Shown: positions 1 to 21,100, numbered from the stretch's first letter. The stretch is 38,435 nucleotides of DNA from an uncultured Prolixibacteraceae bacterium (GCA_964486235.1 CAZANK010000001.1:2488-40922); one strand, 5' to 3'. Program-made: numbers and translations. The notes: generated by a model from the sequence alone, not told the origin.

Positions 1-1
1 C

Positions 2-1246: not shown

Positions 1247-1274
1247 ATGGCTGCTGTATTTAAAGAAATGATAG

Positions 1275-1346
1275 CGGCAGGTCATTCGTGTGATAAAAAT
1301 AATCGGGAAACCGAAAAAAGCTTAAAAGCCGACTAGTGACCTGCCG
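1275..1346. repeat. Perfect 10-bp inverted repeat CGGCAGGTCA (1275-1284) / TGACCTGCCG (1337-1346) with a 52-nt spacer, in the intergenic region upstream of the orphan anti-sigma gene
   Basis: Read directly from the sequence; the arms are exact reverse complements. Function is unknown (RNA structure, operator or rearrangement scar). Confidence 0.6.
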
Positions 1347-1416
1347 GCAAAAGTCGTTATAATAATCAGATGTTGGCAAATGGGATGCTTTATTCATCGG
1401 TTAAACAGAAAGGTTT

Positions 1417-2367: not shown

Positions 2368-2441
2368 GTTTGCAAATAGAATGAACGAGCTAACCCATTT
2401 ATTAACCCAAGTGAATAACCTATGACCTGAAATCGTAAAAA

Positions 2442-2471
2442 AACCGGTCAGCGCGCCAACGCTTTCCGGTT
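2442..2471 (+). promoter_or_regulatory. Compound stem-loop AACCGG-tc-AGCG-cgccaa-CGCT-tt-CCGGTT between the anti-sigma and SusC-like genes
   Basis: Arms are exact complements (6 bp plus 4 bp). It is preceded by an A7 run. The same AACCGG/CCGGTT theme recurs at 15756-15776 and 18078-18109. Confidence 0.4.
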
Positions 2472-2533
2472 AAATGTCAATACCTGACTCACTTATCAAA
2501 TAACTCAAGTATCAACCAACGAATTACAAATGT

Positions 2534-5500: not shown

Positions 5501-5950
5501 ATTGGCGTTCATCATTTTGATTTTTCCTGCTTTTTTCAGGGCTCCGGTAATTCATCCTTTTTCATCGACCCCAGGGCCACAGCGCCTTTTGCCGGCGGGA
5601 CAAGGGCTATTTTAAAGGCTTATGCAGACGATCACTGGTCGGAAGAGAACCAGTATCCCTATGCCCTATGGCCCCGGTTGTCTCCTGAAATCCTTGAAAA
5701 CAATTCGATTACCAGTACATGGTGGTTGCGTGACGGACGGTTCCTTCGACTGAAATCGGCCGAGTTTGGTTATTCCTTATCTAACAGGCTCACGAAAAGC
5801 CTGAAATTGAGGAATACCCGTATCTATGTTTCGGGAACGAATTTATTTTTGATTTCTTCCTTTAAACTCTGGGATGTGGAAATGGCCGGAAACGGTCTGG
5901 GATACCCATTGCAAAGGGTGATCAATGTAGGATTGAAACTTGACTTTTAA
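2534..5950 (+). CDS. SusC/RagA-family TonB-dependent receptor with an N-terminal STN signalling domain (TonB-dependent transducer)
   Basis: Signal peptide MKLTCFILFVFASGLFATNAESQ, so an alternative start at 2591 is possible. STN-like VSIDLKNGTVAEVIDQIEKQTGYLFVYN. Carboxypeptidase-regulatory-like ITGKVTDKDKKPLPGVTIIIVGSTRGVITAPDGTFSI. Plug region VTIVAFGKQKKESVISSIS. C-terminal barrel strand ending in F (VGLKLDF). About 1100 aa. Confidence 0.93.
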   Translation: MKIYLLRGCNASTKRLIRKMKLTCFILFVFASGLFATNAESQVAKVSIDLKNGTVAEVIDQIEKQTGYLFVYNATKVDLLRELTISARRKTVTDILSAVFEGSDVTYVVEGSNILLRCRASEPPQENRITGKVTDKDKKPLPGVTIIIVGSTRGVITAPDGTFSIEASPSDKLVFSFVGMESQIVDVGNQKTINIIMSEKIDELSEVTIVAFGKQKKESVISSISTINAEELKVPSSNLTTSFAGRISGIISYQRSGEPGKDDAEFFVRGVTTFGTGKADPLILIDGVEMSSSDLAHLTPDDIGSFSIMKDANATALYGARGANGVILVNTKEGVEGKTRLSFRAETSLSSPTKMVDIADPLTFMQLRNKAVRARNPLAALPYTKERIDITEKGTEPLLYPQVDWYGMMFRDNTINERYNLNISGGGKMARYYVAGAYSIDRGILKNDKANHFENNINVKRYSLRSNINMKFTPTTDAVIRLHGDMDKRVGPQQDGADYFNQARNVSPVDFPAYFPKDPDDPRTYYVNHILFGSDPQMELVNPYANMVKGFRESSSSIMLAQIELSQKFDFITTGLSARTLFNINRQSHYNFSRSTTPFLYAMSKNIVTGKNELTNLNPKLGKSFLEYFPGGSTVSSSMYSETALMYNRLFAEKHDVSGIFVFTARDTQYGNADNLIGSLPFRNLTFASRLTYGYDGRYFAEANFGYWGSERFEKKERWGFFPSAGLGWMVSRENFMKRYEKTITKLKLKGTYGLTGNDQIGDTNDRFFYMSRVNMNDGNRASQFGTDLGYALPGISFTRYADPNITWEISRKLNLGVELGIFNDVDIQFDYFRERRSNILQYRSDIPSTMGLQSIPSSNIGEAKSHGVELSVDYKHFFSEDFWVNGRGTFTYATNAYSRYEEPDYSTRNVKWLSHLGRSLSQPYGWVAERLFIDEEDVRNAPEQTFGTYGPGDIKYKDINSDGIISSLDQVPIGLPTTPEIIYGFGFSIGVHHFDFSCFFQGSGNSSFFIDPRATAPFAGGTRAILKAYADDHWSEENQYPYALWPRLSPEILENNSITSTWWLRDGRFLRLKSAEFGYSLSNRLTKSLKLRNTRIYVSGTNLFLISSFKLWDVEMAGNGLGYPLQRVINVGLKLDF

Positions 5951-5968
5951 ACTATTAATTTGTTAATT

Positions 5969-7906
5969 ATGAGAATGTTAAATAAATTTTCGATCATTCC
6001 GATCATTTTGGTGTTGCTTTGCGGTTGTTCGGATTTTCTCGATATTATACCTGACGATGTGGCTACCGTTGAAACCGCTTTTGAAAACCGGCAAAACGCT
6101 GAAAGCTTTCTGTTCACCTGTTATAGTTACCTGCCCGATCCATCCGATCCGTGGACTTATCCCGCCTACTCCATTGATGAATTCTACATGCATTCTCCGG
6201 AAAAGTTGTCTTTGGGTCCTGCCCAGGAAATGTATAAGATCATTGACGGGAATCAAAGTGTTAGTCAAACGTACCTGGACTTCTGGGGCGGAACAGGAGG
6301 CAAGGCCGTTAAAAACTTATTTCAGGGTATTCGCGACTGTAATATTTTTCTTGAAAATATCGATAACCCAAAGGATATGCAGTCTGAAACGGAACGCAAA
6401 AGATGGATTGCTGAGGTGAAGTTCCTCAAGGCTTATTTGCATTTTTTTATGATGCAGGTCTATGGCCCTGTCCCGGTTATTAAAGAAAATATCCCGATTT
6501 CTGCGGGTATTGATGAAGTCCGGGTATTTCGCGAACCAGTCGATAGCGTGGCCGCGTATGTTGTTCAATTATTGGATGAGGCTATCCCTGACCTGCCCGA
6601 AGAGATCGCGGATGTCAAAAATGAATTCCGGAGAGTTACAAAACCGATAGCCCTGGCTGTAAAAGCAAAAGTATTGACCACAGTTGCTAGTCCGCTATAC
6701 AACGGAGGTGTTTCTGATTATTCCGGTTATACCGATAGCAAGGGAACTCAGTTGATCTCGGCCACCTATGATCCTCAAAAGTGGATTCGCGCAGCAGATG
6801 CGATACAGGAAGCGATCAACGTGTGCGAAAACAACGGGAACCGGCTCATGGACACCACCGACATTAACTTAACTAACGAATTTTCGACGCGAATGAAATA
6901 TAAGATCACGCTACGGGATATGATCAGTAAGGACGGAAGCCAGGGGCTGGCTGATAATCCCGAGGTGATCTGGGCAATTAATCAAGGGACCAATTCCGGG
7001 CGAAAGGGGAATTACGATACCGATTATTATTATGGTTGTATTGAATACCTGTGCTACCCGGGAGGCAGTCACTGGGCTGGCTATTTCGGCGCAACGATGA
7101 ATACGGTTAAGCTGTTTTATACGGATAAAGGAATACCCATTAAGGAAGATCCGGATTGGCTGGGAATAGATTACAGCGAAGTAGTGACGATACCCGCAAG
7201 TTCGAAGGATTATCTTCCTTCAGGAGAAGCAACGGCGAGGTTTAATTTAAACCGCGAACCCCGATTTTATGCCCATCTGGGATTTAACAGGAGTTACGTG
7301 ACAATGAAGCATTATGAAACAACGCCATATATCAACCGAAGCCTGGGAAACGAGATACTGGGTAAAAAGAATTTTACCGGCTATAATGCCATTAAGCTTA
7401 CAAGTTATACGGCTTCAGGATTATTCGGCGAGTACTTTAATCCGGCCAATTACCAGTTCCCGTTAATCCGGATGGCCGATTTGTACTTGTTATATGCCGA
7501 AGCGCTGAATGAGGTTAAAGCGGCGCCCGACGGCGAGGTTTACCAGTTCGTGGACAAAGTGCGGAACAGAGCTGGATTGAAAGGGGTGGTTGAAACATGG
7601 CAACAGTCCGTCAATCCAAATAGACCGTCAACGAAAGAGGGAATGAGGGAAATAATCCGGACAGAAAGGCAAATTGAGCTGATGTACGAGGGACAGCGGT
7701 TTTTCGATCTAAGAAGATGGTACATTGCCGAAGCCTATTTGAACGGCCCGGTTACCGGCTGGCAGGTATTTGGCACGACGCCGGAAAACTATTATAAAGA
7801 AACGACTTTGTTTACCAGGAGCTATAAACTCCGGGATTATTTCTGGCCAATACGGGAATACGATCTGCTGGTGAATCCCAATCTCGTTCAGTCGTATGGA
7901 TGGTAA
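5969..7906 (+). CDS. SusD/RagB-family nutrient-binding outer-membrane lipoprotein
   Basis: Lies immediately downstream of the SusC-like gene. Lipobox LLCGCSD. SusD motifs FPLIRMADLYLLYAEALNE, ERQIELMYEGQRFFDLRRW and WPIREYDLLVNPNLVQSYGW. The ORF-track start at 5960 is a TTG; ATG 5969 is preferred. Confidence 0.92.
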   Translation: MRMLNKFSIIPIILVLLCGCSDFLDIIPDDVATVETAFENRQNAESFLFTCYSYLPDPSDPWTYPAYSIDEFYMHSPEKLSLGPAQEMYKIIDGNQSVSQTYLDFWGGTGGKAVKNLFQGIRDCNIFLENIDNPKDMQSETERKRWIAEVKFLKAYLHFFMMQVYGPVPVIKENIPISAGIDEVRVFREPVDSVAAYVVQLLDEAIPDLPEEIADVKNEFRRVTKPIALAVKAKVLTTVASPLYNGGVSDYSGYTDSKGTQLISATYDPQKWIRAADAIQEAINVCENNGNRLMDTTDINLTNEFSTRMKYKITLRDMISKDGSQGLADNPEVIWAINQGTNSGRKGNYDTDYYYGCIEYLCYPGGSHWAGYFGATMNTVKLFYTDKGIPIKEDPDWLGIDYSEVVTIPASSKDYLPSGEATARFNLNREPRFYAHLGFNRSYVTMKHYETTPYINRSLGNEILGKKNFTGYNAIKLTSYTASGLFGEYFNPANYQFPLIRMADLYLLYAEALNEVKAAPDGEVYQFVDKVRNRAGLKGVVETWQQSVNPNRPSTKEGMREIIRTERQIELMYEGQRFFDLRRWYIAEAYLNGPVTGWQVFGTTPENYYKETTLFTRSYKLRDYFWPIREYDLLVNPNLVQSYGW

Positions 7907-7932
7907 CTATAAAAAACTAAACTTTTAACAAG

Positions 7933-9165
7933 ATGAAACGAATCACTTCATATATTTTGTTGGGAATTTTCTCCCTCTTGCTGGTACAATGTAAAGAATC
8001 GCCTTTCGGACAAACGGCGGTCGATGATGTAAGCCCCGGTAAGGCAATGGTAACCGATGTGACTGCTATTCCGGGAGGTGCTGTTATTACCTATAACGCT
8101 CCTGCGGATGATGATCTGTTGTACGTTAAGGCAGAATATCCACGAAATGGGAAAATTGCCTCCACGCTTTCTTCGAGCCAGGTGAATACGCTGAAAATTG
8201 AAGGTTTACCTCCTTTCACAGAAAGCATGGAAGTGAAACTGATAGCCGTCGACGCAAGCAGGAATGAATCAGTGCCGGAACTGGTAACGATCAACCCGCT
8301 CGAATCTCCGCTTATCAGTGTTTTGAATTCATTTGATCCACATGCCGATTTTGGCGGGTTCAGCGCCCGTTGGGAAAATCCAACTGCTACAGAGATCGGA
8401 ATTACAGTTCTTTACGACACCTTGCAATCTGGTGCCTATAAAGAAGCCATAACCTTTTATTCTGAGACAGTTGCCGACAGCACGTTATTCGGGCCGTTCA
8501 AGGATAAACACACTTTATTTAAGGTTTACCTGACGGACAAATGGGGAAACCAGTCGCCTGAAAAAGAGTTTGAATTAACTCCTTATTATGAAAGATTGCT
8601 GGATGGCAATAAATTCAAGTTGGTCGGGATTATAACAGACCATACTGTTCCATATTTAGGTCATTTCCCGGATTGGCATGCATTGTTTGACGGACAAACA
8701 CACAATGAAGGATTTATTTCTGACCCAAAAGAAGATGGTTTCCCCATCGTCATGACTTTTGATTTGGGGAAAAAAGTAAAACTATCCAAATACAGGATTT
8801 TTCAAAGGACGCAATACGATGCTGCATTTATTCATTGGAACCTGAAAGATTATGAGTTTTGGGGAACCGGTGAAATCGATGAATCAACTTTTGCAGACTC
8901 GACTTATTGGTCTAACGCGGAAGATGCGCCATGGAAAAACGACTGGGTGCAACTGACGAATTCCCATGTTTATAAGCCATCGGGAGATGATAATCCGGTA
9001 TCTGCCGAAGATGTTGCTGCTGCTCTGGCAGGATATTCTGAAAAGTTCAAGGCTTCCGACCCTTCGGTCAGGTACTTACGGCTTGTAGGAAAGTCAACTT
9101 ATGCCGGATGGCCATGTTGGCAAATTGCCGAGTTAATGATATGGGGGGATGATAAAAATTTTTAA
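7933..9165 (+). CDS. PUL accessory surface lipoprotein, DUF4959/DUF5126/DUF5000-like, with a galactose-binding-like C-terminal domain
   Basis: Lipobox LLLVQCKE. The N-terminal segment VTDVTAIPGGAVITYNAPADDDLLYVKAEY...KLIAVDASRNES is typical of DUF4959. The C-terminal part (YRIFQRTQYD...RYLRLVGKSTYAGWPCWQIAELMIWG) resembles F5/8-type-C-like DUF5000. Confidence 0.75.
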   Translation: MKRITSYILLGIFSLLLVQCKESPFGQTAVDDVSPGKAMVTDVTAIPGGAVITYNAPADDDLLYVKAEYPRNGKIASTLSSSQVNTLKIEGLPPFTESMEVKLIAVDASRNESVPELVTINPLESPLISVLNSFDPHADFGGFSARWENPTATEIGITVLYDTLQSGAYKEAITFYSETVADSTLFGPFKDKHTLFKVYLTDKWGNQSPEKEFELTPYYERLLDGNKFKLVGIITDHTVPYLGHFPDWHALFDGQTHNEGFISDPKEDGFPIVMTFDLGKKVKLSKYRIFQRTQYDAAFIHWNLKDYEFWGTGEIDESTFADSTYWSNAEDAPWKNDWVQLTNSHVYKPSGDDNPVSAEDVAAALAGYSEKFKASDPSVRYLRLVGKSTYAGWPCWQIAELMIWGDDKNF

Positions 9166-9185
9166 TAATGACAAAGCGTTAAATT

Positions 9186-9866
9186 ATGAAAACAAAACCC
9201 GTATTTTTTATATTCCTGATGTTGTTGCTATGTGGATGCAAGGACCTTACTGAGATTCACCAAACCTACCTCGACCGGGGGGAGATCATTTATCTGGCCC
9301 GGCCTGATACAGTGACCGCGGGACAGGGCTATCAGAAAATCCAGTTGAAATGGAATCCCGGGGTAAATCAGGAAATTGAAGGCACCGTTATTTACTGGAA
9401 TGACAGGACCGATTCGCTGGTGCATGCCGTGACCAGTATCAGGGGAAAAGAGGCTGTCGTGATCAGCAATTTGCAGGAGCGTATCTATGTATTCGAATTG
9501 GTTAACTTAGCTTCCAATGGGATCCGTTCGTTGCCTACCGAAGTTAGTAAAATGGTTCTTGGCGAAGAATATGTCAATGCCTTGTTCCCGGCCACTTTTA
9601 CTTATGCCTACGACGAAACCGAAACACGGTTGGTGATTACCTGGGGTAAAACGGATGAAACCCTCCGGTACTCCAGGGTGAAATACACGGCTCTTTCCGA
9701 TGGTTCGGTAAAAGAAGTCGTGTGGAGCCCGTCTGATGGAACCATTACCGTGATTGACGATTTTGATGCCGGTACCGGAAAGACCCTGGAAGTCTGTTCC
9801 GGCTACAGGCCTGACGGAGATGCTTTCGAGGACTTTGAGTCCGGCGCCAAGGTAATCGTGTTTTAA
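9186..9866 (+). CDS. PUL accessory lipoprotein, DUF4998-like
   Basis: Lipobox LLLCGCKD. The segment YLDRGEIIYLARPDTVTAGQGYQKIQLKWNPGVNQEIEGTVIYWND matches the DUF4998 pattern, which commonly follows DUF4959/DUF5000 genes in Bacteroidota PULs. Confidence 0.7.
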   Translation: MKTKPVFFIFLMLLLCGCKDLTEIHQTYLDRGEIIYLARPDTVTAGQGYQKIQLKWNPGVNQEIEGTVIYWNDRTDSLVHAVTSIRGKEAVVISNLQERIYVFELVNLASNGIRSLPTEVSKMVLGEEYVNALFPATFTYAYDETETRLVITWGKTDETLRYSRVKYTALSDGSVKEVVWSPSDGTITVIDDFDAGTGKTLEVCSGYRPDGDAFEDFESGAKVIVF

Positions 9867-10015
9867 TTCTGAAAATACATGACGTATTTGCAGGGAATTA
9901 TGGGGAACTGGCATCAGGATGGAGACAGCCATGGATGCGTCGTGAATACCAATTTCAGTGTACGACGGGTCCCGGCATGATACAAATTAACAGTACTAAC
10001 TCAAATTTTAAAACA

Positions 10016-10117
10016 ATGAAAAGGCATCAGTCAGTCCTTCAGATCAGCGCAATAAGCTTAATCTGCTTGTATTTTGTTTTTGGATGTTCATCCAACTTAA
10101 GACAAAAGGGTGTATGA
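10016..10117 (+). pseudogene. 33-codon stub of a lipoprotein gene (signal peptide plus lipobox only), cut off at the left arm of the inverted repeat
   Basis: MKRHQSVLQISAISLICLYFVFGCSSNLRQKGV then stop. The stop falls inside the repeat arm that begins at 10108. No continuation of the ORF is found after the right arm. Confidence 0.5.
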
Positions 10118-10151
10118 CAAAAACCACTTTTTTTAAAAAAATAGGGTTATA
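10108..10151. repeat. Left arm of a 45-bp imperfect inverted repeat (GGGTGTATGACAAAAACCAC-T7-A7-TAGGGTTATA)
   Basis: Matches the reverse complement of 13762-13806 at about 39 of 45 positions with one 1-nt indel in the T/A tract. Confidence 0.8.
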
Positions 10152-10184
10152 AATTGATATACAATATCATATATTTATAACCCT
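10143..10184. repeat. Palindrome with perfect 12-bp arms AGGGTTATAAAT / ATTTATAACCCT and an 18-nt loop, flanked by A/T runs
   Basis: Read directly. Its left arm overlaps the inner end of the 45-bp repeat arm, so the AGGGTTATA motif occurs three times (10143 +, 10184 -, 13770 -). Confidence 0.7.
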
Positions 10185-10524
10185 TTAAAAAAAATAGGTC
10201 AGGTGCAACGATTGCACGGGGCATTTTATATAATAACTTTAGAATTTAAGGATTTTCGTTAGAGGTATTTGGAGAACATTTTACACTTATCTACTATATA
10301 ATGTTAGAGAGAATAAGAGCTTTTCTTGTTAACGGAATCGTAGTCATTATGCCGAAACCGGCCAATCTATAACCATACAAAATTGATTTTAGTTTCGATT
10401 TTGCTTTATATGGCAATTTTTTTACCGCACATCTTTCAGTTAAACCGTGTAAAAGAGTTTGATTGTCGATGTGGATTTTAGAGTAGCATTTTAAAAGTTT
10501 ACATCAAGAAAATGATTTGGAATT

Positions 10525-12813
10525 ATGATACTTAATTTTATAAAAAATATTTACATTCTCTTATTAATATTAACAACTATCACTTGCAAAAGGGATTCTT
10601 CAGGATGTTCATCGAAGGAAATTATAAATGAGTACAAAATTGAATTCGACCACCCTCCTTCAAAAATTCCAGTACCACATTCTGTTGATGCGCCCCTGCT
10701 CGGAAACGGTTACACAGGAGTATCTATATCTGGACCGCCGGAAAAACAAGTTTATTATCTGGCAAGGAATGATTTCTGGCGATTAAAATCCTCATATAGT
10801 GAGTGTTTTCCTGCAGTTTTGGGGAAAGCTGAAATAGATATTCCAGCATTGTCAGGGGCATCATACAAGATTGTTCAGTATCTTCATAGTGCGGAGACTT
10901 TTTCTTCATTTTCAAAACCTGGAATGAGAGCTGAATTCATTTCATTTGTTTCTGCCACAGATGATTTTATGATTATCGAAATTAGTAATTCTGGAGCCAG
11001 TGAGTTAAAAGGTAATGTAAGGCTTCTACTTCCCGGAGTGGAAGAAAGAAGGGATGAACTTGCTCATGAACCTCCTTGTAAAAAAATTCTTGAGGACATC
11101 AGTGAATCAGGGGATAACGGGAATGGTATATATTGGATTTGCAGGGGTTTTGAAAAAAATGTGGACATTTGTTCTAAAGCAGCGTGTGCTTTTAAAATAC
11201 TCCAAAACAAAACAAACAGTTTTAATCTAAAACCTGGAAAGAAAATTAAGATTGTCTTTTCGTTTTCAAGCGACTTTAAAAGTGAGGACTGTTTGAAGAA
11301 AGTAATTGACAACGTTTTAAAAGTTAATAAATCCGATATAAAATCGCTTGAAAAGGATCACAAATCATGGTGGGCTGATTTCTGGTCAAAATCGTTTGTT
11401 TTCATTTCAGATAAAAAAATTGAGAAACACTATTATTTATCTAATTATGCATTGGCATGTTCCTGCAGGGACAAAAATTTCCCTCCCGGTATTTTTGGCA
11501 CATGGATTACTAAGGAGATTCCTTTCTGGTCTGGCGATTATCATCTGAATTATAATCATATGGCTCCTTATTATGGGCTGTATTCTTCCAATCATATAGA
11601 GCAGGCTGACTCCTATAATGCTCCTGTTTTGGCAATGCAGGAAAGGGGAGAATATTACTCTGAAAAGATAACAGGGATTAAAGGAGGCATATTGCTGCCT
11701 GTCGGAATCGGACCAATTGGAATGGAGAGTACCCGCAAGAATACATGGGTGGCTGAAAATAAAAAAAACTGGATTAATGAAGGATATGAAGATGAGGGTA
11801 TGTTTTGGGGACAGAAAAGCAACTCAGCCTACTGCGTTGTCAATATGTCTATGCAGTTTTACCATACTTACGACAAAGATTATATTAATCGTGTTTACCC
11901 TTTTGTAAAGGGTGTTGCAACTTTTTGGGAAAACTATCTGGTTAATGAGAACGGAATCAATGTAATATATAATGATGCTGTTCATGAAGGGAGCCATGAA
12001 GGGCCGAACGGAAATAAGAATTCTATTTTATCCTTAGGATTGGTGCGCCTCGTTTTTCAGACGGCTATTGATATGAGCATAGAGATCCAGCGGGATGGTG
12101 ACCTTCGCGAAAAATGGACTCTTATTCTTAAGAACATGGCAGATTATCCTTTGCAGAAAAAGAAAGGGAAAATCATTTTTCGTTATACTGAAGAAGGGCC
12201 GGCGTGGTTTGATAGTAATACAATTGGAATTCATCATATTTATCCGGCAGGACAAATCGGATTGGAAAGTGATCCTAAACTTCTTGAAATAGCAAAAAAT
12301 ACAATGGATATTATGAACAGATGGACTGACTTCAATGGTTCAAACAGTTTTTTTCCAGCTGCTGTTCGTATAGGCTATGACCCCAAAGAAATTTTGAAGC
12401 AATTACATAAATATATTGAGAATACTGATCCTAACGGATTTGAAAAACATAATCCGCATGGAATTGAAAATTTAAGTACGGTGCCAAATACGATCAATGA
12501 AATGTTATGCATAAGCCATCAGGGAATAATAAAAGTTTTTCCAGTATGGCCTATGGAAAAAGATGCCTGTTTTCATCAGTTAAGGACTTATGGTGCATTT
12601 TTAGTTTCAAGTGAAATAACGAACGGTATTGTTTCTTTTGTTAGGATTCATAGTGAGAAGGGAAAAACTTGCTTTTTGGAGAATCCATGGAAAGGAGAAA
12701 AAGTAACTGTAAAAAGTACTACGTCGGGATTGCGGCATGTAGATGGTGACATAATTAAAATAGATACAAAACCTGGAGAGGACTTACTAGTGCAAATTTT
12801 TTCAACTCGGTAG
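10525..12813 (+). CDS. GH95-like six-hairpin glycoside hydrolase (lipoprotein)
   Basis: Lipobox-like LILTTITCKRD. N-terminal LLGNGYTGVSISGPPEKQVYYLARNDFWRL resembles the GH95 N-terminal domain (GNGxxG...W). WSGDYHLNYNHMAPYYGLYSSNH resembles the GH95 catalytic-domain YxxNxNxxMxYW motif. The gene is markedly AT-rich compared with its neighbours. Confidence 0.55.
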   Translation: MILNFIKNIYILLLILTTITCKRDSSGCSSKEIINEYKIEFDHPPSKIPVPHSVDAPLLGNGYTGVSISGPPEKQVYYLARNDFWRLKSSYSECFPAVLGKAEIDIPALSGASYKIVQYLHSAETFSSFSKPGMRAEFISFVSATDDFMIIEISNSGASELKGNVRLLLPGVEERRDELAHEPPCKKILEDISESGDNGNGIYWICRGFEKNVDICSKAACAFKILQNKTNSFNLKPGKKIKIVFSFSSDFKSEDCLKKVIDNVLKVNKSDIKSLEKDHKSWWADFWSKSFVFISDKKIEKHYYLSNYALACSCRDKNFPPGIFGTWITKEIPFWSGDYHLNYNHMAPYYGLYSSNHIEQADSYNAPVLAMQERGEYYSEKITGIKGGILLPVGIGPIGMESTRKNTWVAENKKNWINEGYEDEGMFWGQKSNSAYCVVNMSMQFYHTYDKDYINRVYPFVKGVATFWENYLVNENGINVIYNDAVHEGSHEGPNGNKNSILSLGLVRLVFQTAIDMSIEIQRDGDLREKWTLILKNMADYPLQKKKGKIIFRYTEEGPAWFDSNTIGIHHIYPAGQIGLESDPKLLEIAKNTMDIMNRWTDFNGSNSFFPAAVRIGYDPKEILKQLHKYIENTDPNGFEKHNPHGIENLSTVPNTINEMLCISHQGIIKVFPVWPMEKDACFHQLRTYGAFLVSSEITNGIVSFVRIHSEKGKTCFLENPWKGEKVTVKSTTSGLRHVDGDIIKIDTKPGEDLLVQIFSTR

Positions 12814-12881
12814 TTATATCGAATTAATAACTAGAATCATGAAATTAGAAGAATTGATGAATGGAAAATATTATTTTTTAA

Positions 12882-13367
12882 ATGTCAGAATATTATGTGA
12901 CTATTTTCTTTCTTGCAAGTGTTAATCAGATTACCGCTCAAAATAAAGCTTCTTTACTAAATCGCAACTTTGAACTTACAGTTACAATAGATACAGTCAA
13001 AGTCAATGTAAAAATTACTGATCTAAAGTATAATGCAATGTGGGCTGACGGGATATATAATCATCAACTGGAGGAAATAGCTACCGGGGAACTTGAGGGG
13101 TTTTCAGGGCTCAAATTACCATCATTGGAATGTCATTCTGACCGGATCCGCATTCGGAGACTCATTGGTGACTTTGAAATTGAACATGATCTTATTCTTG
13201 CTACCGAAAGTCCCCTTCTTGCTGAAGAGATGAAAATTGTGAATCTTCAAGGGATTCGAAGAAATGTCAGTAAGTTTTCTGCTTCATTTAGCAAAAACGT
13301 AACAGGCACAAACAGAGAAATTTTGAAAAATCACATTCAATGTCGTTTAGTTAGTGGCTTTTTATAA
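12882..13367 (+). CDS. Hypothetical protein, probably the N-terminal fragment of a larger secreted protein
   Basis: Signal-peptide-like IFFLASVNQITAQ sits at the very N-terminus. An upstream ATG at 12839 lies in the frame displaced by one nucleotide, across a T6 run (12874-12879), suggesting a frameshifted start. The ORF ends a few bp before the IS66-like fragment. No family was recognised. Confidence 0.35.
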   Translation: MSEYYVTIFFLASVNQITAQNKASLLNRNFELTVTIDTVKVNVKITDLKYNAMWADGIYNHQLEEIATGELEGFSGLKLPSLECHSDRIRIRRLIGDFEIEHDLILATESPLLAEEMKIVNLQGIRRNVSKFSASFSKNVTGTNREILKNHIQCRLVSGFL

Positions 13368-13400
13368 TCGTTTGTAATTCGTAGTTGTTTACCCGGCTAT

Positions 13401-13595
13401 TTATGAGGTAATAAAATTATGCCCTTCAAATGTGGCGCATAATTTTGTAAAGACATTACGCTGATTTTTTCTTGCAGTCGATATAAAACCTTCAATCGGG
13501 GCATAGAATTCAGCTCCCCTGAAAGTTCGGAAACAGTTGGATACTTTTTGCTTGACCTTTGCCGCTCTGAGGTCCCTTTCGGCCTGATTATCCAA
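13401..13595 (-). mobile_element. C-terminal fragment of an IS66-family-like transposase (pseudogene)
   Basis: LDNQAERDLRAAKVKQKVSNCFRTFRGAEFYAPIEGFISTARKNQRNVF fits the IS66-type C-terminal pattern (DNNxAER, then KxKxKxSxxFRxxxGA and ISTxxK). Only about 65 homologous residues remain. The upstream part of the 112-aa ORF is out-of-frame read-through of a different fragment. Confidence 0.5.
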
Positions 13596-13761
13596 AAGTT
13601 GTGATAATCTGGCTGAACACATCGTAAAGCATCGAACCCATCGCCAAAGACCGGGGACTGTCTGTTTTAGGGCCAAACTGGTGTACCCCAAATTCTTCCA
13701 CCACGCTGGGATGATTGGGCAAAACCAACCGGGTACCATCTACGGCCAGGGTACGCATGCC
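13588..13761 (-). mobile_element. Internal fragment of an IS4-family-like DDE transposase (pseudogene), in a different frame from the IS66-like piece
   Basis: My own translation of the minus strand gives RVIGMRTLAVDGTRLVLPNHPSVVEEFGVHQFGPKTDSPRSLAMGSMLYDVFSQIITTFG then stop. AVDGTxLxLP...EFG...LYDV resembles the region around the first catalytic Asp of IS4-like transposases. There is no start codon and it is under 60 aa, so it is absent from the ORF track. Confidence 0.4.
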
Positions 13762-13806
13762 TATAACCCTATTTTCTAAAAAAGGAGTGGTTTTTGTCGT
13801 ACACCC
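13762..13806. repeat. Right arm of the 45-bp imperfect inverted repeat (reverse complement GGGTGTACGACAAAAACCACTCCTTTTTTAGAAAATAGGGTTATA)
   Basis: See the left arm at 10108-10151. This arm directly abuts the IS4-like fragment. Confidence 0.8.
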
Positions 13807-13851
13807 CCATCAAATTGATAGGCATTATGCAGTTTTTTTATTCTTTTATTT

Positions 13852-13859
13852 TACTTTTG
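13852..13859 (+). promoter_or_regulatory. Candidate Bacteroidota -7 promoter box TACTTTTG (consensus TAnnTTTG) upstream of the ECF sigma gene
   Basis: Matches the TAnnTTTG consensus 36 nt upstream of the ATG at 13895. No clear -33 TTTG partner was seen, so support is weak. Confidence 0.3.
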
Positions 13860-13894
13860 ACATGAATTAAAGGGAACTGTCAACAAACTAATCT

Positions 13895-14527
13895 ATGGCA
13901 AAAGAGGGTGATAAAAATAGAGAATACTGGGATATGGTTTGGTCTCAGTTTAAAGATGGTGACAAGGAGGCTTTTGCTGTTTTTTATAACCTTCACATTG
14001 ACCGCCTTTATCAATATGGTCTTAAATTCTGTAATGATGGAGAAACCATAAAGGATGCTATTCAGGAAGTATATCTTGATTTGTATCTGAAAAGAGAAAA
14101 GAATACAGCCGGTCCTGACAATCTAAAATACTATCTGTTTTTATCCCTGAAAAGAAATCTGATTAAGAAACTACAATTTGACAGGCGTTTTGATCGTGGT
14201 GAAATCGAAAACAAAAAACAAGCTGACCTGGAGTTTAGTATAGAGTACCTGCTTATTGAGAAAGAGCAGGAGGCAGAGCTTCAAAAAAAACTTGCAAATA
14301 CGTTAAATCAGCTTCCACGCAAGCAAAAAGAAGCAGTATACCTGCGATTTAATGAAGCGTTGGATTATCCTTCTATCGCAGTTGTTTTGGGAACTACAGT
14401 GGAATCGGTACGGAAGCAGGTATACAGGGCATTAAAGACTATTCGCGAGACGATCGACGATAAGTCGTTTATGTTGCTGTTTTCTTTTTTTCAAAAAAAG
14501 CTAAAAAAAAAGTCCATGTTTGAATAG
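13895..14527 (+). CDS. ECF-type RNA polymerase sigma-70 family factor
   Basis: Region 2-like FAVFYNLHIDRLYQYGLKF...IQEVYLDLYLKRE. Region 4 HTH LPRKQKEAVYLRFNEALDYPSIAVVLGTTVESVRKQVYRALKTIRE. It lies directly upstream of a FecR gene. Confidence 0.88.
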   Translation: MAKEGDKNREYWDMVWSQFKDGDKEAFAVFYNLHIDRLYQYGLKFCNDGETIKDAIQEVYLDLYLKREKNTAGPDNLKYYLFLSLKRNLIKKLQFDRRFDRGEIENKKQADLEFSIEYLLIEKEQEAELQKKLANTLNQLPRKQKEAVYLRFNEALDYPSIAVVLGTTVESVRKQVYRALKTIRETIDDKSFMLLFSFFQKKLKKKSMFE

Positions 14528-14557
14528 TTGGAAGCCTTTTAAGGTATAATTCCAACA

Positions 14558-15757
14558 ATGCGGATGGACAAGCTTAGTAAATACCTTGAAGACCTCAACT
14601 TTGTTCGTTGGGTTTTTGATACCACGCCGGAAATGGACCGGCATTGGGATCAATTTATGAGAGAACATCCTGATGAAATAAAAAGTATTCAGCACTCCCG
14701 GAGCATTATGCTCCAATTTCGGACAATCGCTAAAACGCTTTCCGAAGAGGAGAAGATTATTTTATTTTCGAGGGTACTGAATGAAATAGAGAAAAGACAA
14801 AAGGTAAAAACAACCTACCGGTTTTTTTCCGAAGTATTGAAATATGCGGCCATCGCCATAATTTTCTTTTCGGCAGGAGTATTGCTTTTTTACCGGGATA
14901 ATCCTGTCATCCCAGCCTTTTATACTTCAAGCTTAAATGACCGAATACCTGAAAATCAGGCACAATTGATTCGTGCAAGTGGAGAAACGGTCATTCTCGA
15001 CAAGCAATGCACCGTTCTGGAATACAAAAAAAACGGTGAGTTGGTCATAAATAACGATACTCTAAAACCAGTAAATTCAGATTCGAAAGGCGAACAGAAA
15101 CTCAACCAACTAATTATACCATACGGAAAAACCTCAGAATTAATACTGCCTGATGGGACAAAAGTATTTTTGAATGCGGGAAGCCGCTTGATTTATCCTG
15201 ATCTTTTCACGGGCGATACGCGTGATGTATTTCTGGTTGGAGAAGCCTATTTTGAAGTGGAGCACGATTCAAAACATCCATTCATCGTCCAGGTAAACGA
15301 ATTAAGAATTAAAGATTTGGGAACCAAGTTTAATGTCTCTGCTTATCCGTCTGATGGCCGCATTGAGACAGTATTGACTGAAGGAAAGGTAAGCATTCAG
15401 CCAGGCAATTCCGGTCTTTTCACCCGGTCAACAGAACTTATTCCCGGACAATTGGCTTCCTTTAACAAACAGAATCTTCAGATTTCAGTAGAATCAGTTA
15501 ATGTCGATGATTATATCCTTTGGACACAAGGGGTCATGAGGTTTGAAACGGCCGAACTTAGCCGAATTATAAAAAAACTGGAGCGCTATTTTAATGTTCG
15601 TTTTGAATATAAGGATCCGATGCTGGGTTCGTTATTGATTTCCGGAAAACTAGCGTTGAAGGAGGATAGACAGGAGGTTTTTGAACGGATTGCACGGGCT
15701 GCATCGGTAAAAATAGTAGAAATAGGAGATAACTATTATGAAGTAGTAAAAAATTGA
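14558..15757 (+). CDS. FecR-family anti-sigma factor (transmembrane sensor)
   Basis: TM helix AAIAIIFFSAGVLLFY. FecR motifs LPDGTKVFLNAGSRLIYP, VFLVGEAYFEVEHDSKHPFIV and IKDLGTKFNVSAY. C-terminal DUF4974-like MRFETAELSRIIKKLERYFNVRFEY. Confidence 0.9.
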   Translation: MRMDKLSKYLEDLNFVRWVFDTTPEMDRHWDQFMREHPDEIKSIQHSRSIMLQFRTIAKTLSEEEKIILFSRVLNEIEKRQKVKTTYRFFSEVLKYAAIAIIFFSAGVLLFYRDNPVIPAFYTSSLNDRIPENQAQLIRASGETVILDKQCTVLEYKKNGELVINNDTLKPVNSDSKGEQKLNQLIIPYGKTSELILPDGTKVFLNAGSRLIYPDLFTGDTRDVFLVGEAYFEVEHDSKHPFIVQVNELRIKDLGTKFNVSAYPSDGRIETVLTEGKVSIQPGNSGLFTRSTELIPGQLASFNKQNLQISVESVNVDDYILWTQGVMRFETAELSRIIKKLERYFNVRFEYKDPMLGSLLISGKLALKEDRQEVFERIARAASVKIVEIGDNYYEVVKN

Positions 15758-15790
15758 ACCGGAAGGAGTTCCGGCAACGGCCGATTCACC
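15755..15790 (+). repeat. Junction repeat copy 1 (TGAACCGGAAGGAGTTCCGGCAACGGCCGATTC), containing the hairpin CCGGAA-ggag-TTCCGG
   Basis: Begins at the FecR stop codon. It is similar to 18077-18112: the first 10 nt are identical and about 26 of 33 aligned positions match. Confidence 0.6.
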
Positions 15791-15957
15791 TTATCGTTTA
15801 TTTGACAAAATATGAAAAGAATCTGATGCACGTATCTGTTTTACCGACAGGCAGACCGGGTTGGATATACGCTCACCTCGTGAAGCTAAAACTCTTCCTT
15901 CAGCGAGTCTTCCGATTTACGAAATTTCAAATTAAGGAGAGCGACCACTTAAAAGTG

Positions 15958-18075
15958 ATGAAATATAAATTGATGACGACTAAAAGGCTATCAAATCAAA
16001 AAGGAATCATGATTGCATTCATCCTGTTTTTTAACGCGATAGGATATTCTGAAACAATGGCTCAGAATCGAAGAACAGAGATTTTATGGGATCATTATGG
16101 TGTCCCGCATATTTATGCAAAGAATACAAAGGAAATGTACTATGCCTTTGGCTGGTCGCAAATGCATAATCATGCAAACCTGATGTTGAAACTTTATGCA
16201 CAGGCAAGGGGCCGGGCCGCTGAGTACTTTGGCGAAGACTATCTAAGTTCGGACAAGCTTATTCAACTTTTCAATATCCCGGAACAGGCCATAAACGTTT
16301 ACAAGAAGCAGGAAGATGAATATAAAACGTATCTCGATGCCTTTGTTGCAGGAATTAACAATTACGCAAGAACACATCCTGAGGTAATTGATGAAAGGAG
16401 CAGACAGGTGTTGCCGGTAACCTCTTTCGATCTTATAAGTCATATGATTAGGATTGTAAGCTTAGAATTTGTGGCAAAAGAAGATATATACATCTCCGCG
16501 AAATCAACCGGGGCTGGTTCGAATGCTTATGCAATAGCCCCCTCAAAATCTGAGTCAAAGAATGCCATGCTTGTTAGTAATTCCCATCTTCCATGGTCTG
16601 ACTATTCTCTGTATTTTGAAGCTCATTTGAACACGGTTGGGTTTAATTCGTATGGGATCGCCCTTGTTGGGATGCCTGCAATTATTATGGCTTTTAACGA
16701 TCATCTGGGTTGGACATTCACCGTGAATCCGATCGATTGTTCTGACCGCTATGAGCTTACATTGCAGGATGGCGGCTATTTGTTGGACGGGAAAACCCTC
16801 AGATTTGAAAAAAAGAAAGCAACAATCAAAGTAAAGCAAAAGGATGGTCGGATTGAGGAAGAAGAGTTAGAATTCAATTATTCAAAGCACGGACCTGTGG
16901 TCGCGCAAAGCAGTCATAAAGCCTTTGCCGTGAGAATTGCAGGGCTTGACAATTTCAGTGTATTTGAGCAATATCATAAAATGAACAAGGCCAAAAATCT
17001 GACTGAATTTGAGTCAGCGCTAAAAATGCAGCAAATGGCTATGTTTAATATCATATATGCAGATAAATCAGGAAATATTCTATATCTGTTTAATGGGAAT
17101 GTTCCGATAAGAGAAGAAGGTGATTTTGCTTTTTGGAAGGGCACAATTGACGGAACTCAATCAAAGTTTATCTGGACCAAAACACATCCATACAACGATT
17201 TACCCAGATGTTTAAACCCGCCTTCAGGATTTATTCAGAATTGTAACGATGCCCCTTGGACTTGTACAGAGCCTGCGGTATTGGATGCTAAGAATTTCCC
17301 ACCCTATTTCTCTTCTCTTGGTACGTCTTTCCGCCCGCAGCGGGCTGTAAATATGATAAAAGATAATCCTTCGATTTCTTTTGACCAGTTAATAAGCTGC
17401 AAACATGACACAGGAATGGAGACAGCACACAGATTCTTGGACGATTTACTCGCAGCAGCTGATGCGTATCCCGATACAATGGTACTTAAAGCCGCCTCTG
17501 TGCTAAGACGATGGGATAAGAAAACGGAGGTTGATAGCAGAGGTGCTGTTTTATTCGCCAAATGGTGGGATTCGGTGAGCAGTGATCTGTTTGAAGTCCC
17601 ATGGAATGCAAAAGTCCCGAATACGACTCCTGACGGTATAAAAGACAAGAAAAAGGCTGTTGAATTATTGGGAAAAGCCGCGAATGAGGTTAAAGAGAAA
17701 TACGGATCATTGGATGTTGCCTGGGGCGATGTGTATCGCTTTCGATTGAATGGCATTGATTATCCGGCAAATGGCGGATCAGGGGAATACGGAATTTTCA
17801 GGACGCTATATTTTACCGATGATGGAGATAAAAAAATCGCTGTTGCCGGGGAGACTTATGTGGCCATAGTTGAATTTGGTAAAAAAGTGAAGGCAATGGT
17901 CTTGCTTGGTTATGGGAATGCGACTCAGGCAGGGAGTAAGCACATCGGAGATCAACTTCAAATGCTGTCTGAAAAGAAGCTGCGCCCTGCGTTAATAAAC
18001 AAAGCCAACATCATCAACAATCTTGAATTTTTCGAAACCCTTTCAATGGAGACCGATAAAAAAAGCACCTTATAA
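15958..18075 (+). CDS. Peptidase S45 / penicillin-acylase-family Ntn hydrolase (PvdQ / acyl-homoserine-lactone-acylase-like)
   Basis: Signal peptide within MKYKLMTTKRLSNQKGIMIAFILFFNAIGYSETMAQ. Alpha-subunit motif ILWDHYGVPHIYAKNTKEMYYAFGWSQMHNHANLMLKLY. Autoprocessing and nucleophile motif GAGSNAYAIAPSKSESKNAMLVSNSHLPW (compare PvdQ SNAIAV...LLANPHFPW), with the candidate nucleophile Ser codon at 16519-16521. The ORF-track start at 15754 is a TTG overlapping the FecR stop and adds 68 non-homologous residues. Confidence 0.82.
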   Translation: MKYKLMTTKRLSNQKGIMIAFILFFNAIGYSETMAQNRRTEILWDHYGVPHIYAKNTKEMYYAFGWSQMHNHANLMLKLYAQARGRAAEYFGEDYLSSDKLIQLFNIPEQAINVYKKQEDEYKTYLDAFVAGINNYARTHPEVIDERSRQVLPVTSFDLISHMIRIVSLEFVAKEDIYISAKSTGAGSNAYAIAPSKSESKNAMLVSNSHLPWSDYSLYFEAHLNTVGFNSYGIALVGMPAIIMAFNDHLGWTFTVNPIDCSDRYELTLQDGGYLLDGKTLRFEKKKATIKVKQKDGRIEEEELEFNYSKHGPVVAQSSHKAFAVRIAGLDNFSVFEQYHKMNKAKNLTEFESALKMQQMAMFNIIYADKSGNILYLFNGNVPIREEGDFAFWKGTIDGTQSKFIWTKTHPYNDLPRCLNPPSGFIQNCNDAPWTCTEPAVLDAKNFPPYFSSLGTSFRPQRAVNMIKDNPSISFDQLISCKHDTGMETAHRFLDDLLAAADAYPDTMVLKAASVLRRWDKKTEVDSRGAVLFAKWWDSVSSDLFEVPWNAKVPNTTPDGIKDKKKAVELLGKAANEVKEKYGSLDVAWGDVYRFRLNGIDYPANGGSGEYGIFRTLYFTDDGDKKIAVAGETYVAIVEFGKKVKAMVLLGYGNATQAGSKHIGDQLQMLSEKKLRPALINKANIINNLEFFETLSMETDKKSTL

Positions 18076-18076
18076 A

Positions 18077-18112
18077 TGAACCGGAAAGTGTTCCAGCACA
18101 GTCCGGTTCTTA
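18077..18112 (+). repeat. Junction repeat copy 2 (TGAACCGGAAAGTGTTCCAGCACAGTCCGGTTC), containing an 8-bp stem GAACCGGA / TCCGGTTC with a 16-nt loop
   Basis: Begins 2 nt after the acylase stop codon. See copy 1. Confidence 0.6.
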
Positions 18113-18155
18113 GTGTTAAATCTTTTGCTAATGTATCATTTAACGATTCAAATTT

Positions 18156-21100
18156 ATGAAAAAAAAACGAGAAGTTTTACATCCTTATGCGGATGAGATG
18201 AGATTAAACTTTAGGAAGATGAAATTGACAACTATTCTACTGTTTATTGTTTGTGTTACTTTTGGGAACAGTTTCTCTCAGGTTCGGTTATCGGTTCATT
18301 TTGACAAATCCGATATTCGTGAAGTACTTCTAACCATCGAAGAAAAAACCGATTACGTTTTTCTGTATAAGGATCAAATCTTCGATTTCTCACAAAAGAT
18401 TTCGGCTGCTTTTAACGAAGCAAAATTCGAGGATGTTCTAAAAGATTTCTGTGATCAGACGAATATCTCTTATGAGATACGCAACAGGCAGATTATCCTG
18501 AAATCGAAAGAGCCAGACGGTTTGCCGACAGCACAGCAACCTCAGAAAAGGACCGTTACCGGTAGAGTTACTGATACGGCAGGAGATCCGATTCCCGGGG
18601 TTTCCGTGATTGTAAATGGCACTTCAGTCGGAACCATTACCGACAGTGAAGGGAACTTTTCTTTACAGGTTCCCGGCGACGTCAAAGCACTGACCTTTTC
18701 TTTTGTAGGGATGAAAACACTTGAAGTTCCTGCCGCCGGGAAGACGACATTTTTCATCGAGATGGATGAAGAAACGGTTGGTGTTGATGAAGTTGTAGTG
18801 ATTGGTTATGGGATACAAAAAAAGGTTAACCTTTCTGGAGCCGTTGATGTCGTAACTTCTGAAGCATTAGTTAACCGCCCTGTGAATAATGTGGTGCAGG
18901 CTTTACAGGGAATGGCACCCAACCTCAACGTCACCGTAGGCAATGAAGGTGGAGAATTGGGAGGAAAGATGAGTATGAATATCCGGGGAATCGGTTCAAT
19001 CAGTGGTTCCGGTGGAAATCCCTACATCCTGGTGGATGGAATCGAACAGAGTATTTATAACATTAATCCAGAGGATGTTGAAAGTATATCAGTTTTAAAA
19101 GATGCAGCTGCGTCTGCGATTTACGGGGCAAGAGCCGCATTCGGTGTTATTTTAATTACGACCAAACGGGGGCAGACGGATGGTGTTACTGTAAATTATT
19201 CAAATAGTTTCTCTTTTGCCACGCCTATTAATCGTCCAAAATCGGTTAATTCGATCAAATTCGCGGAGTATTTTAATTTGGCTTCAGCCAATGATGGTAA
19301 TGTTCCCATATTCGAACCTATTATCATAGAGAACATGCACAAATACCAGGCCGGTGAACTGACGGACTGGACTATGCCGATTCCCTGGGAGCCTAATTAT
19401 TGGCTGACTTACCAGGGTGGATGGGCAAATACGGATTGGTATAAAGTATATTATAAAGATTGGGTACCCAAATCCACCCATGGCATTAGTTTAAGCGGTG
19501 GTGATCAACGAACGCAATTCTTTGTTTCAGGTTCAACGTTCGACCAGGATGGTCTTTTAAGATATGGTGATGATACTTATATCAGGAACAATTTGAATGC
19601 AAAAATCAATACGAGTGTCAATGATTGGCTACGCTTCAGCTTTTTAAGCAAATTCAACCGGACTAACTTGAACAGACCCAGTTACGATAAGGATGCGATG
19701 TATGCAAACATTGCTCGTTCCTGGCCTACAAATGATGTTTTTTTCCCCGATGGCAATCGCCATTATGAAACCGGATTAATTTATGTTCAGCAAGGCGATC
19801 GGTATATTGAAAACTCCAATGAATTCACCGTTATTCCGGGAATCGAGATTGAGCCTGTAAAAGGTTGGGTTATCAATGCAAACTATCGTTGGAAAATGAA
19901 TACCAATGGTTATACCAATCACGAAGCCAAGGTACAGGGAACCTTTACTGACGGATCTCCGTTTTACCTGAGGCCAAATAATTATTTTGCAAGAAACCAG
20001 TATGAAAGTTACTATAATTCACCGAATGTCTATTCTACCTACCACAAAAAGATAGGATCACATCAATTCACGGCGCTGGCTGGTTTTGAACAGGAAAAGG
20101 TTGACTATCAGTCTTCATATTCCCGAAAAGATGACTTGATCAGCGATGAAAAACCATCTCTTGGCACAGCTACAGGCAAGGAATATGCGTCAGGCACTCT
20201 CGGACATTGGGCAACCCGAAGTTATTTCGGCCGGTTAAATTATGATTTTCGTGAGAAGTATCTGCTGGAGGTTTCAGCACGCCGGGACGGCTCATCCAAA
20301 TTTGAAAAGGGATATCGTTGGGGTCTTTTCCCATCAGGGTCCATGGCCTATATTATTTCGAAAGAATCGTTCTGGGAGCCTCTCGAAACCTATATCCCCA
20401 TGATGAAAGTCCGGGGGTCATTTGGTTCTTTGGGAAATCAGGATGTGGCAAATTATCTGTACGTGGAGCGCCTTCCGGTTTATACGAACTTGCCATACAT
20501 TATGGGCGACGACAGACCCAATTATATAGGAATGGCAGGTCTTTCAAGCCCGGAATTAACATGGGAAAGGGTCAATACGACTAATTTTGGGCTGGATGTG
20601 GGCTTGGTAAAGAACAAACTGACGGCTTCTATCGATTATTTTATCCGGGATACTTACGATATGTTAGGGCCTGTAGAATCCCTCCCGGCAGTGCTTGGGA
20701 CAGAAGTTCCAAGATCAAACAACGCGACCTTGAAAACAAACGGATTTGAACTTATCGTGGGATGGAAAGATAAAATCAAGGATTTCTCATATGATGCTAA
20801 ATTTATGCTTTCCGATGCAAAAACCAAAATCATGGAATACTATAACCCTCAGGATTTATTAAGTGCTCCTTTCTACGAAGGGATGCAAATGGGTGAAATT
20901 TGGGGATATACGACCACCGGGTTATTTCAAACTGATCAGGAAGCCCAAAGCAAAGATCAGTCCTACTTATCAAAAGAAGTGTGGCGCGCGGGCGATGTGC
21001 AGTATGCTGACCTGAATGGAGATGAAAAGATTAATATTGGTAAAAATACTGTCGGAGACCATGGTGATCTTTCGATAATTGGTAACTCGACACCACGATA

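Follow-up and report, generated by a model that had tools for sequence, protein, structure and literature searches.

How did a 3.7-kb segment carrying a glycosidase gene come to lie between two polysaccharide utilization loci (PULs) in an uncultured Prolixibacteraceae bacterium, bounded by inverted copies of one short sequence? The stretch of DNA that we analyzed, hereafter called the window, spans 38,435 nucleotides (GCA_964486235.1 CAZANK010000001.1:2488-40922), wherein PUL1 (positions 1-9866) and PUL2 (13807-38435) are separated by the segment in question (10108-13806). An earlier description of this DNA, made without database searches and called here the sequence-only reading, offered three explanations for the segment: a mobile insertion cassette lacking a transposase or a decayed composite element, in either case with a passenger gene for a carbohydrate-active enzyme (CAZyme); a region invertible by recombination between its arms; or two copies of a dispersed repeat that mediated a rearrangement. 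We place a probability of about one-half on an account wherein the segment is a decayed, immobile fossil of the composite or cargo-transposon kind, bounded by the ends of a mobile element that we name X.

Element X and the inverted arms

The two arms of the segment, 10108-10151 and the reverse complement of 13762-13806, are identical at 40 of 45 aligned columns with one 1-nt gap, in agreement with the 45-bp imperfect inverted repeat described earlier. Their outer 21 nt read GGGTGTAYGACAAAAACCACT, with one transition as the sole difference between the arms. When as many as three mismatches were allowed, this 21-mer was found in the window at the two arm sites only, and none of 100 shuffled sequences contained two matches. 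A 14-mer from the inner portion of the arm gave the same outcome in a window scan with shuffles.

Homology to X on the left extends beyond the originally described arm to 89 bp (10108-10196, plus strand), and this stump includes the outer terminal sequence and a long subterminal hairpin with a predicted stability of -17.1 kcal/mol (z = -5.4). A further extension past 10196 was rejected because the local alignment score of 16 is below the shuffle mean of 19. The stump on the right comprises 45 bp (13762-13806, minus strand), with its outer end at 13806. It is cut within the left half of the hairpin stem, directly abuts a fragment of an insertion sequence (IS) of the IS4 family, and does not fold alone, whereas the hairpin is retained in the other four X copies described below. 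The interior of X would extend rightward from the left stump and leftward from the right stump.

An exact scan for the 21-mer in 185,579 GTDB species-representative genomes gave no matches, and the same scan of JGI metagenome contigs uncovered three more copies of X, in L008, L009, and L010. Similarity among all five copies begins at the identical base (GGGTGTA), beyond which the flanking sequences are unrelated. In the window, these flanks are a truncated lipoprotein open reading frame (ORF) on the left and the region upstream of an extracytoplasmic function (ECF) sigma factor gene on the right. Outside the window, the flank is the interior of a glycoside hydrolase family 29 (GH29) alpha-L-fucosidase gene in L008, reduced to Pfam positions 220-344 of 345, the beginning of an IS630-type element in L009, and the upstream region of a metallophosphatase gene in L010 and in L033. 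The left stump is 92-93% identical over 89 bp to X in L008, L009, and L010, and the right stump is 95.6% identical to these copies over 45 bp. The right arm resembles the copies outside the window more closely than it resembles its partner on the left, which has private substitutions absent from the right arm.

The inner extent of X is ragged. Homology ends after 45 bp at the right arm and 89 bp at the left arm, continues for at least 117-122 bp up to the contig ends in L008 and L009, and reaches ~225 bp in L010 and L033, where a truncated FecR gene follows. That the copies have in common one sharp outer boundary, at which genes are cut, while their inner boundaries are ragged, indicates that these are truncated copies of a mobile element. 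The arms are accordingly assigned to the ends of a dispersed, unclassified mobile element, and comparison of the copies shows that X is dispersed and that its outer boundary cuts predicted genes both here and elsewhere. The best reading of the arms is that they represent the outer ends of two truncated, inward-facing X copies, or the two ends of one copy. In this respect the earlier proposal of a dispersed repeat was partly right, given that the arms recur as three further copies in unrelated contexts with the same sharp outer boundary.

The other copies have contexts of their own. In L008 (622-1379), the outer X boundary cuts the GH29 gene noted above, and in L009 (97-1279) 27 bp separate it from the start codon of an IS630-type transposase gene (HTH and DDE_3 domains) that is frameshifted, from which we conclude that X copies are located in IS-rich regions associated with CAZyme genes. 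In L010 (200-436) and L033 (99-547), the ~225-bp X stump abuts a FecR-type anti-sigma gene that is cut after ~75 codons and that adjoins its own ECF sigma gene. A diverged relative, P0184, wherein 4 of 44 residues differ, keeps this X-anti-sigma junction with the same ‘VFLHPCFNS’ tail, which indicates that X remnants are old.

L008 and L009, which both derive from sample Ga0172382, also have in common a block of ~35 bp (TTTTTGTCGGTYRRTAGTGAT...AATAT) at the far ends of the contigs (L008 575-609; L009 1980-2013, minus strand). This block includes the reverse complement of CGACAAAAAC from the arm and, in L008, is found ~85 bp past an ORF that resembles a transposase C terminus and has no Pfam match. 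The block may represent either a further IS end or the opposite terminus of X. As a second X end it was set aside, given that the window has no copy of it and that its alignment with the arm stops at a 10-mer. A short ORF within X (MTKELEKFARENAQ...) was likewise considered as the N terminus of a transposase. Among 5.8 billion proteins only copies from the same locus match it, and the lack of homologues beyond its own locus suggests that it is probably no real gene.

Nested insertion sequences and the enclosed genes

Reading leftward on the minus strand from position 13806, the 45 bp of X are followed by an internal piece of an IS4-family element, the 3′ end of an IS66-family element, and the last 46 bp of the IS4-family element. 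The internal IS4 piece (13592-13761, minus strand; ..RTLAVDGTRLVLPNHP..SMLYDV..) corresponds to about positions 491-650 of a 1.48-kb element and is 75-78% identical to the internal part of such elements, and its homologues match NCBIfam NF033592 (9.9e-28, 6.9e-20) and PF01609. Its junction with the IS66 piece is located between 13592 and 13606. The 46-bp piece (13335-13380, minus strand) includes the terminal inverted repeat (..TTCAATGTCGTTTAGTTA..) and is 87-93% identical to the right ends of the 1.48-kb IS4-like copies in L013, L014, and L016. In these near-intact copies the terminal repeat CAATGTCGTTTAGTTA is present at both ends, whereas the window has it once (13338-13353).

The IS66-family piece (13381-13591, minus strand) retains the last ~63 transposase codons, with the stop codon at 13401-13403, and matches NCBIfam NF033517 (2.2e-13). 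The terminus of this element (GTAGTTGTTTACC...) is present from 13381 onward on the plus strand. At the DNA level the piece is 76% identical to L017 and L022, whose 3′ ends can be aligned with it. Its protein homologues are P0027-P0055, of which P0029 matches NF033517 at 2.7e-40.

Both assignments rest on a family transposase match together with an element terminus. The window shares with the ~1.48-kb IS4-family copies (NF033592), such as that in L014 from the Bacteroidota metagenome-assembled genome GCA_030697035.1, the right end, the internal part, and the terminal repeat, but differs from intact elements in that only ~215 of 1480 bp survive and are split by the IS66 piece. Similarly, the IS66 piece has the conserved C terminus of its family (NxAERDLRxxKVKQKxSNCFRT...) and a GTA... 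terminus as in L017 and L022, but only the last ~210 bp remain.

Neither terminus resembles the arms. X was therefore rejected as the IS4-like terminal repeat, given that the intact relatives have their own repeat at both ends, and as the left end of the IS66-like element, given the different IS66 terminus and the fact that the short ORF within X has no IS66 homologue. The sequence-only reading had listed a GH95-like gene, a truncated ORF, and two transposase fragments without an intact transposase or recombinase. These contents were borne out, and the two fragments prove to be pieces of an IS4::IS66 wreck, in which one element is nested in the other and neither is related to the arms.

The alignments show that the IS4-family element sits in the 3′ end of a predicted 161-aa ORF, that the IS66-family element sits within the IS4 element, near the 3′ end of the latter, and that most of both elements is gone from the window. 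Two deletions would be enough to account for the present order of the pieces. One would have run from about position 650 in the interior of the IS4 element into IS66, and the other from position 46 of X to about position 491 of IS4, with loss of the contents of X and possibly of its transposase gene. Loss of the remaining lipoprotein gene sequence and of any target duplication would date from the arrival of the segment or from a later rearrangement.

Two further observations concern this debris. Assemblies from two Logan samples break within the IS4-like fragment (13639-13729), wherein L003 and L004 end at 13639 and L031 and L032 begin at 13729, which indicates that the fragment is repeated in those communities. 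In addition, the DNA just beyond the IS66-like terminus in L017 (4441-4457) resembles the IS4-like tail in the window (13363-13380), such that the BLAST alignment extends 18 bp past the end of the element. This likeness may reflect a target preference of the IS66-like element for such a sequence.

The lipoprotein ORF on the left (9935-10117, plus strand) has no Pfam or NCBIfam match. Its true start is likely the MKRH... codon near 10016, which is followed by the lipobox VFGC. About 31 native codons remain, and the TGA stop codon (10115-10117) is supplied by the left arm, in accord with the earlier remark that this arm begins where the ORF is cut. The remainder of the gene is not present on the far side of the segment. 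Between the left stump and the first enclosed gene is a unique AT-rich spacer (10197-10524; 32% GC) with no homology to X or to the loci that were fetched for comparison.

The first enclosed gene (10525-12813, plus strand) is intact and encodes a GH95-like glycoside hydrolase of 762 aa (PF22124, 8.6e-24) with an N-terminal signal or lipoprotein sequence. Compared with hundreds of homologues (741-774 aa; 53-59% identity), the protein is complete, and the best non-self matches (57-59%) are from Reichenbachiella, Sunxiuqinia, Prolixibacteraceae, and Marinilabiliaceae. The PF22124 match covers profile positions 48-408, and the N- and C-terminal GH95 domains are below cut-offs. Solved GH95 enzymes match at 5e-7 to 1e-4 only, and the best Protein Data Bank (PDB) match is 7kmq (8e-11). 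We classify the protein as a member of a distant GH95-like family and as a putative glycosidase. In L023, this family occurs among GH2, GH109, and GH29 genes. The loci L023 and L026 were rejected as orthologous to the window, given that the neighboring genes are absent or only 23-37% identical.

The second enclosed gene is the 161-aa ORF (12882-13367, plus strand), which encodes a small secreted protein of a rare family without a Pfam match and is cut at its 3′ end. The sequence-only reading had considered it probably truncated. The ORF is native to ~13334, beyond which the IS4-like terminal repeat that cuts it supplies the last 10 codons (IQCRLVSGFL). Among 1.84 billion representative proteins the family has eight relatives. 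An origin as a fragment of a GH95 paralogue was rejected, given that BLASTP against the GH95-like protein yields E > 1.

The closest homologue of the 161-aa protein, P0177 (49% identity; L034 2524-3051), loses similarity near the same codon. The 3′ end of its gene overlaps a minus-strand ORF of 64 aa at the contig end, which resembles a transposase C terminus and has no Pfam match, and an IS30-type transposase gene is located upstream in L034. This small secreted-protein family thus seems to live in IS-rich islands. The ‘QCRL’ tail that P0177 has in common with the 161-aa ORF was dismissed as a sign of the same IS junction, given that the codons differ and that the DNA downstream of P0177 is not the IS4-like repeat.

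To the right of the segment, the ECF sigma factor gene (13895-14527, plus strand), which is the first gene of PUL2, starts 88 bp from the right X end and is followed by the FecR gene (14558-15757). Between FecR and SusC is a gene of the penicillin-amidase family (15754-18075; Pfam 1e-128), an unusual component for a PUL. In a second strain, L030 (5156-7257), this gene is split into ORFs of 182 and 518 aa, and there it may be a pseudogene.

Base composition, strains, and competing histories

The interior of the segment (10197-13337) has a GC content of 35.5%, compared with 45.7% for PUL1 and 41.2% for PUL2. On the left, GC content drops sharply from 49% to 30% between ~9.8 and 10.2 kb. Over the IS fragments near the right arm it rises locally to 44%. 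GC content at third codon positions (GC3) is lower in the GH95-like gene (0.31) and the 161-aa ORF (0.29) than in any other of the 23 genes of the window. The tetranucleotide correlation of the segment to the window (0.77) is also the lowest, with chunks of equal size ranging from 0.83 to 0.90. PUL1 and PUL2 themselves differ in GC3 (0.41-0.56 versus 0.34-0.43), and this difference means that the break at ~9.9 kb is equally well a boundary between the two PULs and a boundary of the segment. Composition hints at a foreign origin of the segment but does not prove it.

Exact-protein look-ups with the GH95-like, DUF4998, and sigma factor proteins recovered contigs belonging to five samples (ENA, JGI, and three Logan runs). 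Their junctions are identical and in one orientation, at 99.6-100% identity, and the recurrence of these junctions in independent assemblies indicates that they are not an assembly artifact. The exact GH95-like protein was found on six contigs, all representing one locus, and no second copy of the segment was seen. The DUF4998 protein gave 91 pattern matches among the GTDB species representatives, none of which was confirmed. This result, together with the lack of 21-mer matches, indicates that the lineage is not represented in that collection. The second strain (L030, Logan SRR29050538), when compared with window positions 10818-20528, has 35 differences, all of which are within 14635-20366. 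There are no differences in 10818-14634, which includes the 3′ part of the GH95-like gene, the 161-aa ORF, the IS debris, the right arm, and the sigma factor gene. This uneven divergence suggests that a recent recombination or sweep affected the segment together with ~830 bp on its right, or else that strains were mixed in the assembly.

The view that the segment is a fossil with cargo is favored by the low copy number of X, the inward-facing pair of ends, the atypical GC3 of the enclosed genes, and the lost remainder of the lipoprotein gene. The low GC3 suggests, without proving it, that the two enclosed genes were brought in as cargo. A number of findings weigh against this view. At the right arm there is no GC step, with 33-38% on both sides, and the neighboring sigma factor and FecR genes are nearly as AT-rich (GC 36.7-39.9%; GC3 0.37-0.38). 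The earlier claim that the segment is compositionally foreign is therefore weakened, although its low GC content and the step on the left were confirmed. The outer junctions read ...GACAAAA/GGGTG on the left and CACCC/CCATCAA... on the right, and no direct repeat of 2-12 nt that could represent a target-site duplication was found across them, as had been observed before. The protein look-ups in the five samples, which bear on the empty site whose existence had been proposed as a check, gave the same arrangement only, with no empty site and no other context for the flanking genes. Neither a full-length X nor its transposase turned up in the metagenome scan or the GTDB representatives, and X had no match in viral contigs, plasmids, or phages, all of these being incomplete collections. 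Because the nearest homologues of the GH95-like protein are only 57-59% identical, no donor can be named. Finally, in L026 a GH95-like gene ends one PUL and is followed by the next sigma/FecR/SusC set with no X nearby, and this layout implies that the position of the gene in the window could be native.

The same evidence bears on a history wherein the GH95-like gene and the 161-aa ORF are resident genes, either at the distal end of PUL1 or between the PULs, that never moved as a unit. Two separate X copies would have inserted on either side in opposite orientation, and deletions from within each copy would have removed the body of X, the remainder of the lipoprotein gene, and part of the IS4::IS66 wreck. 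Native genes would be in keeping with the missing duplication across the arm pair, with the lack of a GC step on the right and a composition like that of the adjacent sigma factor and FecR genes, with a gene orientation that agrees with both PULs, and with the comparable layout in L026. The private substitutions of the left arm would fit two insertions of different age. This history nevertheless demands that two rare X stumps face each other by chance 3.7 kb apart, and X is indeed rare, with the 21-mer scans finding three more copies in JGI metagenomes and none in GTDB species representatives. It also sits poorly with the lowest GC3 and most atypical tetranucleotide usage of the window being found in the enclosed genes, and with a second strain that is identical to the window across the segment yet differs from it by 0.2-0.9% in PUL2. 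It is the strongest of the rival accounts, and we consider it possible but doubtful.

Other explanations fare worse. Inverted X ends enclosing cargo without a transposase of its own, and an outer 21 nt that is nearly perfectly conserved at both ends and in the outside copies, could describe a non-autonomous cassette that is still mobilizable, its arms being served in trans by the transposase of a full-length X. Against such a cassette stand the missing target duplication, the occurrence of the segment at a single locus in all five samples, and the lack of cassette sequence in the three outside X copies. The right end, moreover, is reduced to 45 bp and has lost the subterminal hairpin that is present in every other copy, and no autonomous X was found. 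This makes continued mobility very unlikely, and the transposase-less mobile insertion cassette in the sequence-only reading finds no support in the same facts. The decayed composite with a passenger CAZyme gene, which was its other version, agrees with X ends that face inward around the GH95-like gene.

Inversion of the 3.6-kb interior by recombination between the arms, with consequences for expression of the GH95-like gene or the downstream sigma factor gene, is suggested by the inverted repeats and by the location of the right arm 88 bp upstream of the sigma factor gene. Every assembly that reaches an arm has one orientation, and no inverted form is present in the assemblies from the five samples, in which only the majority form is represented. 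The 38-kb window, where ORFs of at least 150 aa are all PUL-type genes, yielded no serine or tyrosine recombinase and no recombinase domain. The near-perfect core of the arms is only 21 bp long and belongs to the ends of a dispersed element rather than to a dedicated recombination site. We therefore see hardly any prospect that the segment is invertible, and that earlier proposal is not supported.

The prospect is equally slim that the arms are a regulatory or repetitive extragenic palindromic (REP)-like intergenic hairpin repeat with no link to mobility or to the segment, an outcome that had been named as one that would undo the sequence-only reading. The arms are AT-rich, form a strong hairpin, and recur in other contexts, but they have an exact common outer boundary and cut coding sequences (the lipoprotein ORF and the L008 GH29 fucosidase gene). 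Their very low copy number and ragged inner boundary (45, 89, and ~225 bp) are unlike those of unit-length REP elements, and no Rfam family was found in 9800-14000 at E ≤ 1.

A remnant of composite or cargo-transposon type thus remains the favored account. No intact transposase or recombinase was detected in 10108-13806 by ORF calls, Pfam, or NCBIfam, and with one crippled end and no target duplication the segment cannot move now. Its only working part is likely the intact GH95-like gene, which has the orientation of PUL1 and whose product probably serves as an accessory enzyme.

Known systems and the remodeling of PUL boundaries

Composite transposons with inverted IS copies include Tn10 with IS10, Tn5 with IS50, and Tn4351 of Bacteroides, which is flanked by IS4351. 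The window segment resembles these in having two ends of the same element that face inward, cargo without a transposition function, and outer ends that look to be of the same type. It departs from them in that whole flanking IS copies are absent, with inverted stumps of only 89 and 45 bp remaining, in the lack of a transposase and of a duplication, and in that X is unclassified and has no intact copy. In mobile insertion cassettes such as MIC231 of Bacillus cereus, IS231-type ends surround passenger genes and are mobilized in trans. IS-type inverted ends around passenger genes with no cognate transposase are found here as well. Such cassettes are complete at both ends, are flanked by target duplications, occur in several copies, and have a known autonomous partner, whereas none of these features was found for the window segment, in which one end is truncated.

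Relics bounded by insertion sequences are commonplace. Jiang et al. (2019, PMC6907783) documented mobile elements of gut Bacteroidetes whose cargo includes glycoside hydrolase genes, GH95 among them, and entire PULs. The window likewise has a GH95-type gene with transposable-element sequences beside PULs. Those elements were defined as intact and recently transferred, whereas ours is a degraded relic in an uncultured environmental Bacteroidota with no sign of recent transfer as a unit. The segment is a further example of a kind that is already documented.

The locus provides a worked example of how PUL boundaries are remodeled by successive insertion sequences in an uncultured Bacteroidota lineage. 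Here an accessory glycosidase gene lies between the ends of X, truncation has affected both a lipoprotein gene of a PUL and a gene for a small secreted protein, and three element families are nested in less than 500 bp. For annotation, this means that IS debris accounts for the two ‘hypothetical’ ORFs of 56 and 112 aa and for the tail of the 161-aa ORF, and that the GH95-like gene is best treated as accessory and possibly acquired. The wider interest lies in the identity of X and its transposase. On a bolder view, which we judge rather unlikely, X is the terminus of an undescribed family of cargo-carrying transposons in environmental Bacteroidota, characterized by terminal repeats of at least 45 bp, a subterminal hairpin of ~80 nt, and no transposase recognizable in databases. 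If this were true, then the window would retain a derivative that moved a GH95-like gene between two PULs, and this would point to a dedicated route by which individual CAZyme genes are shuffled from one PUL to another.

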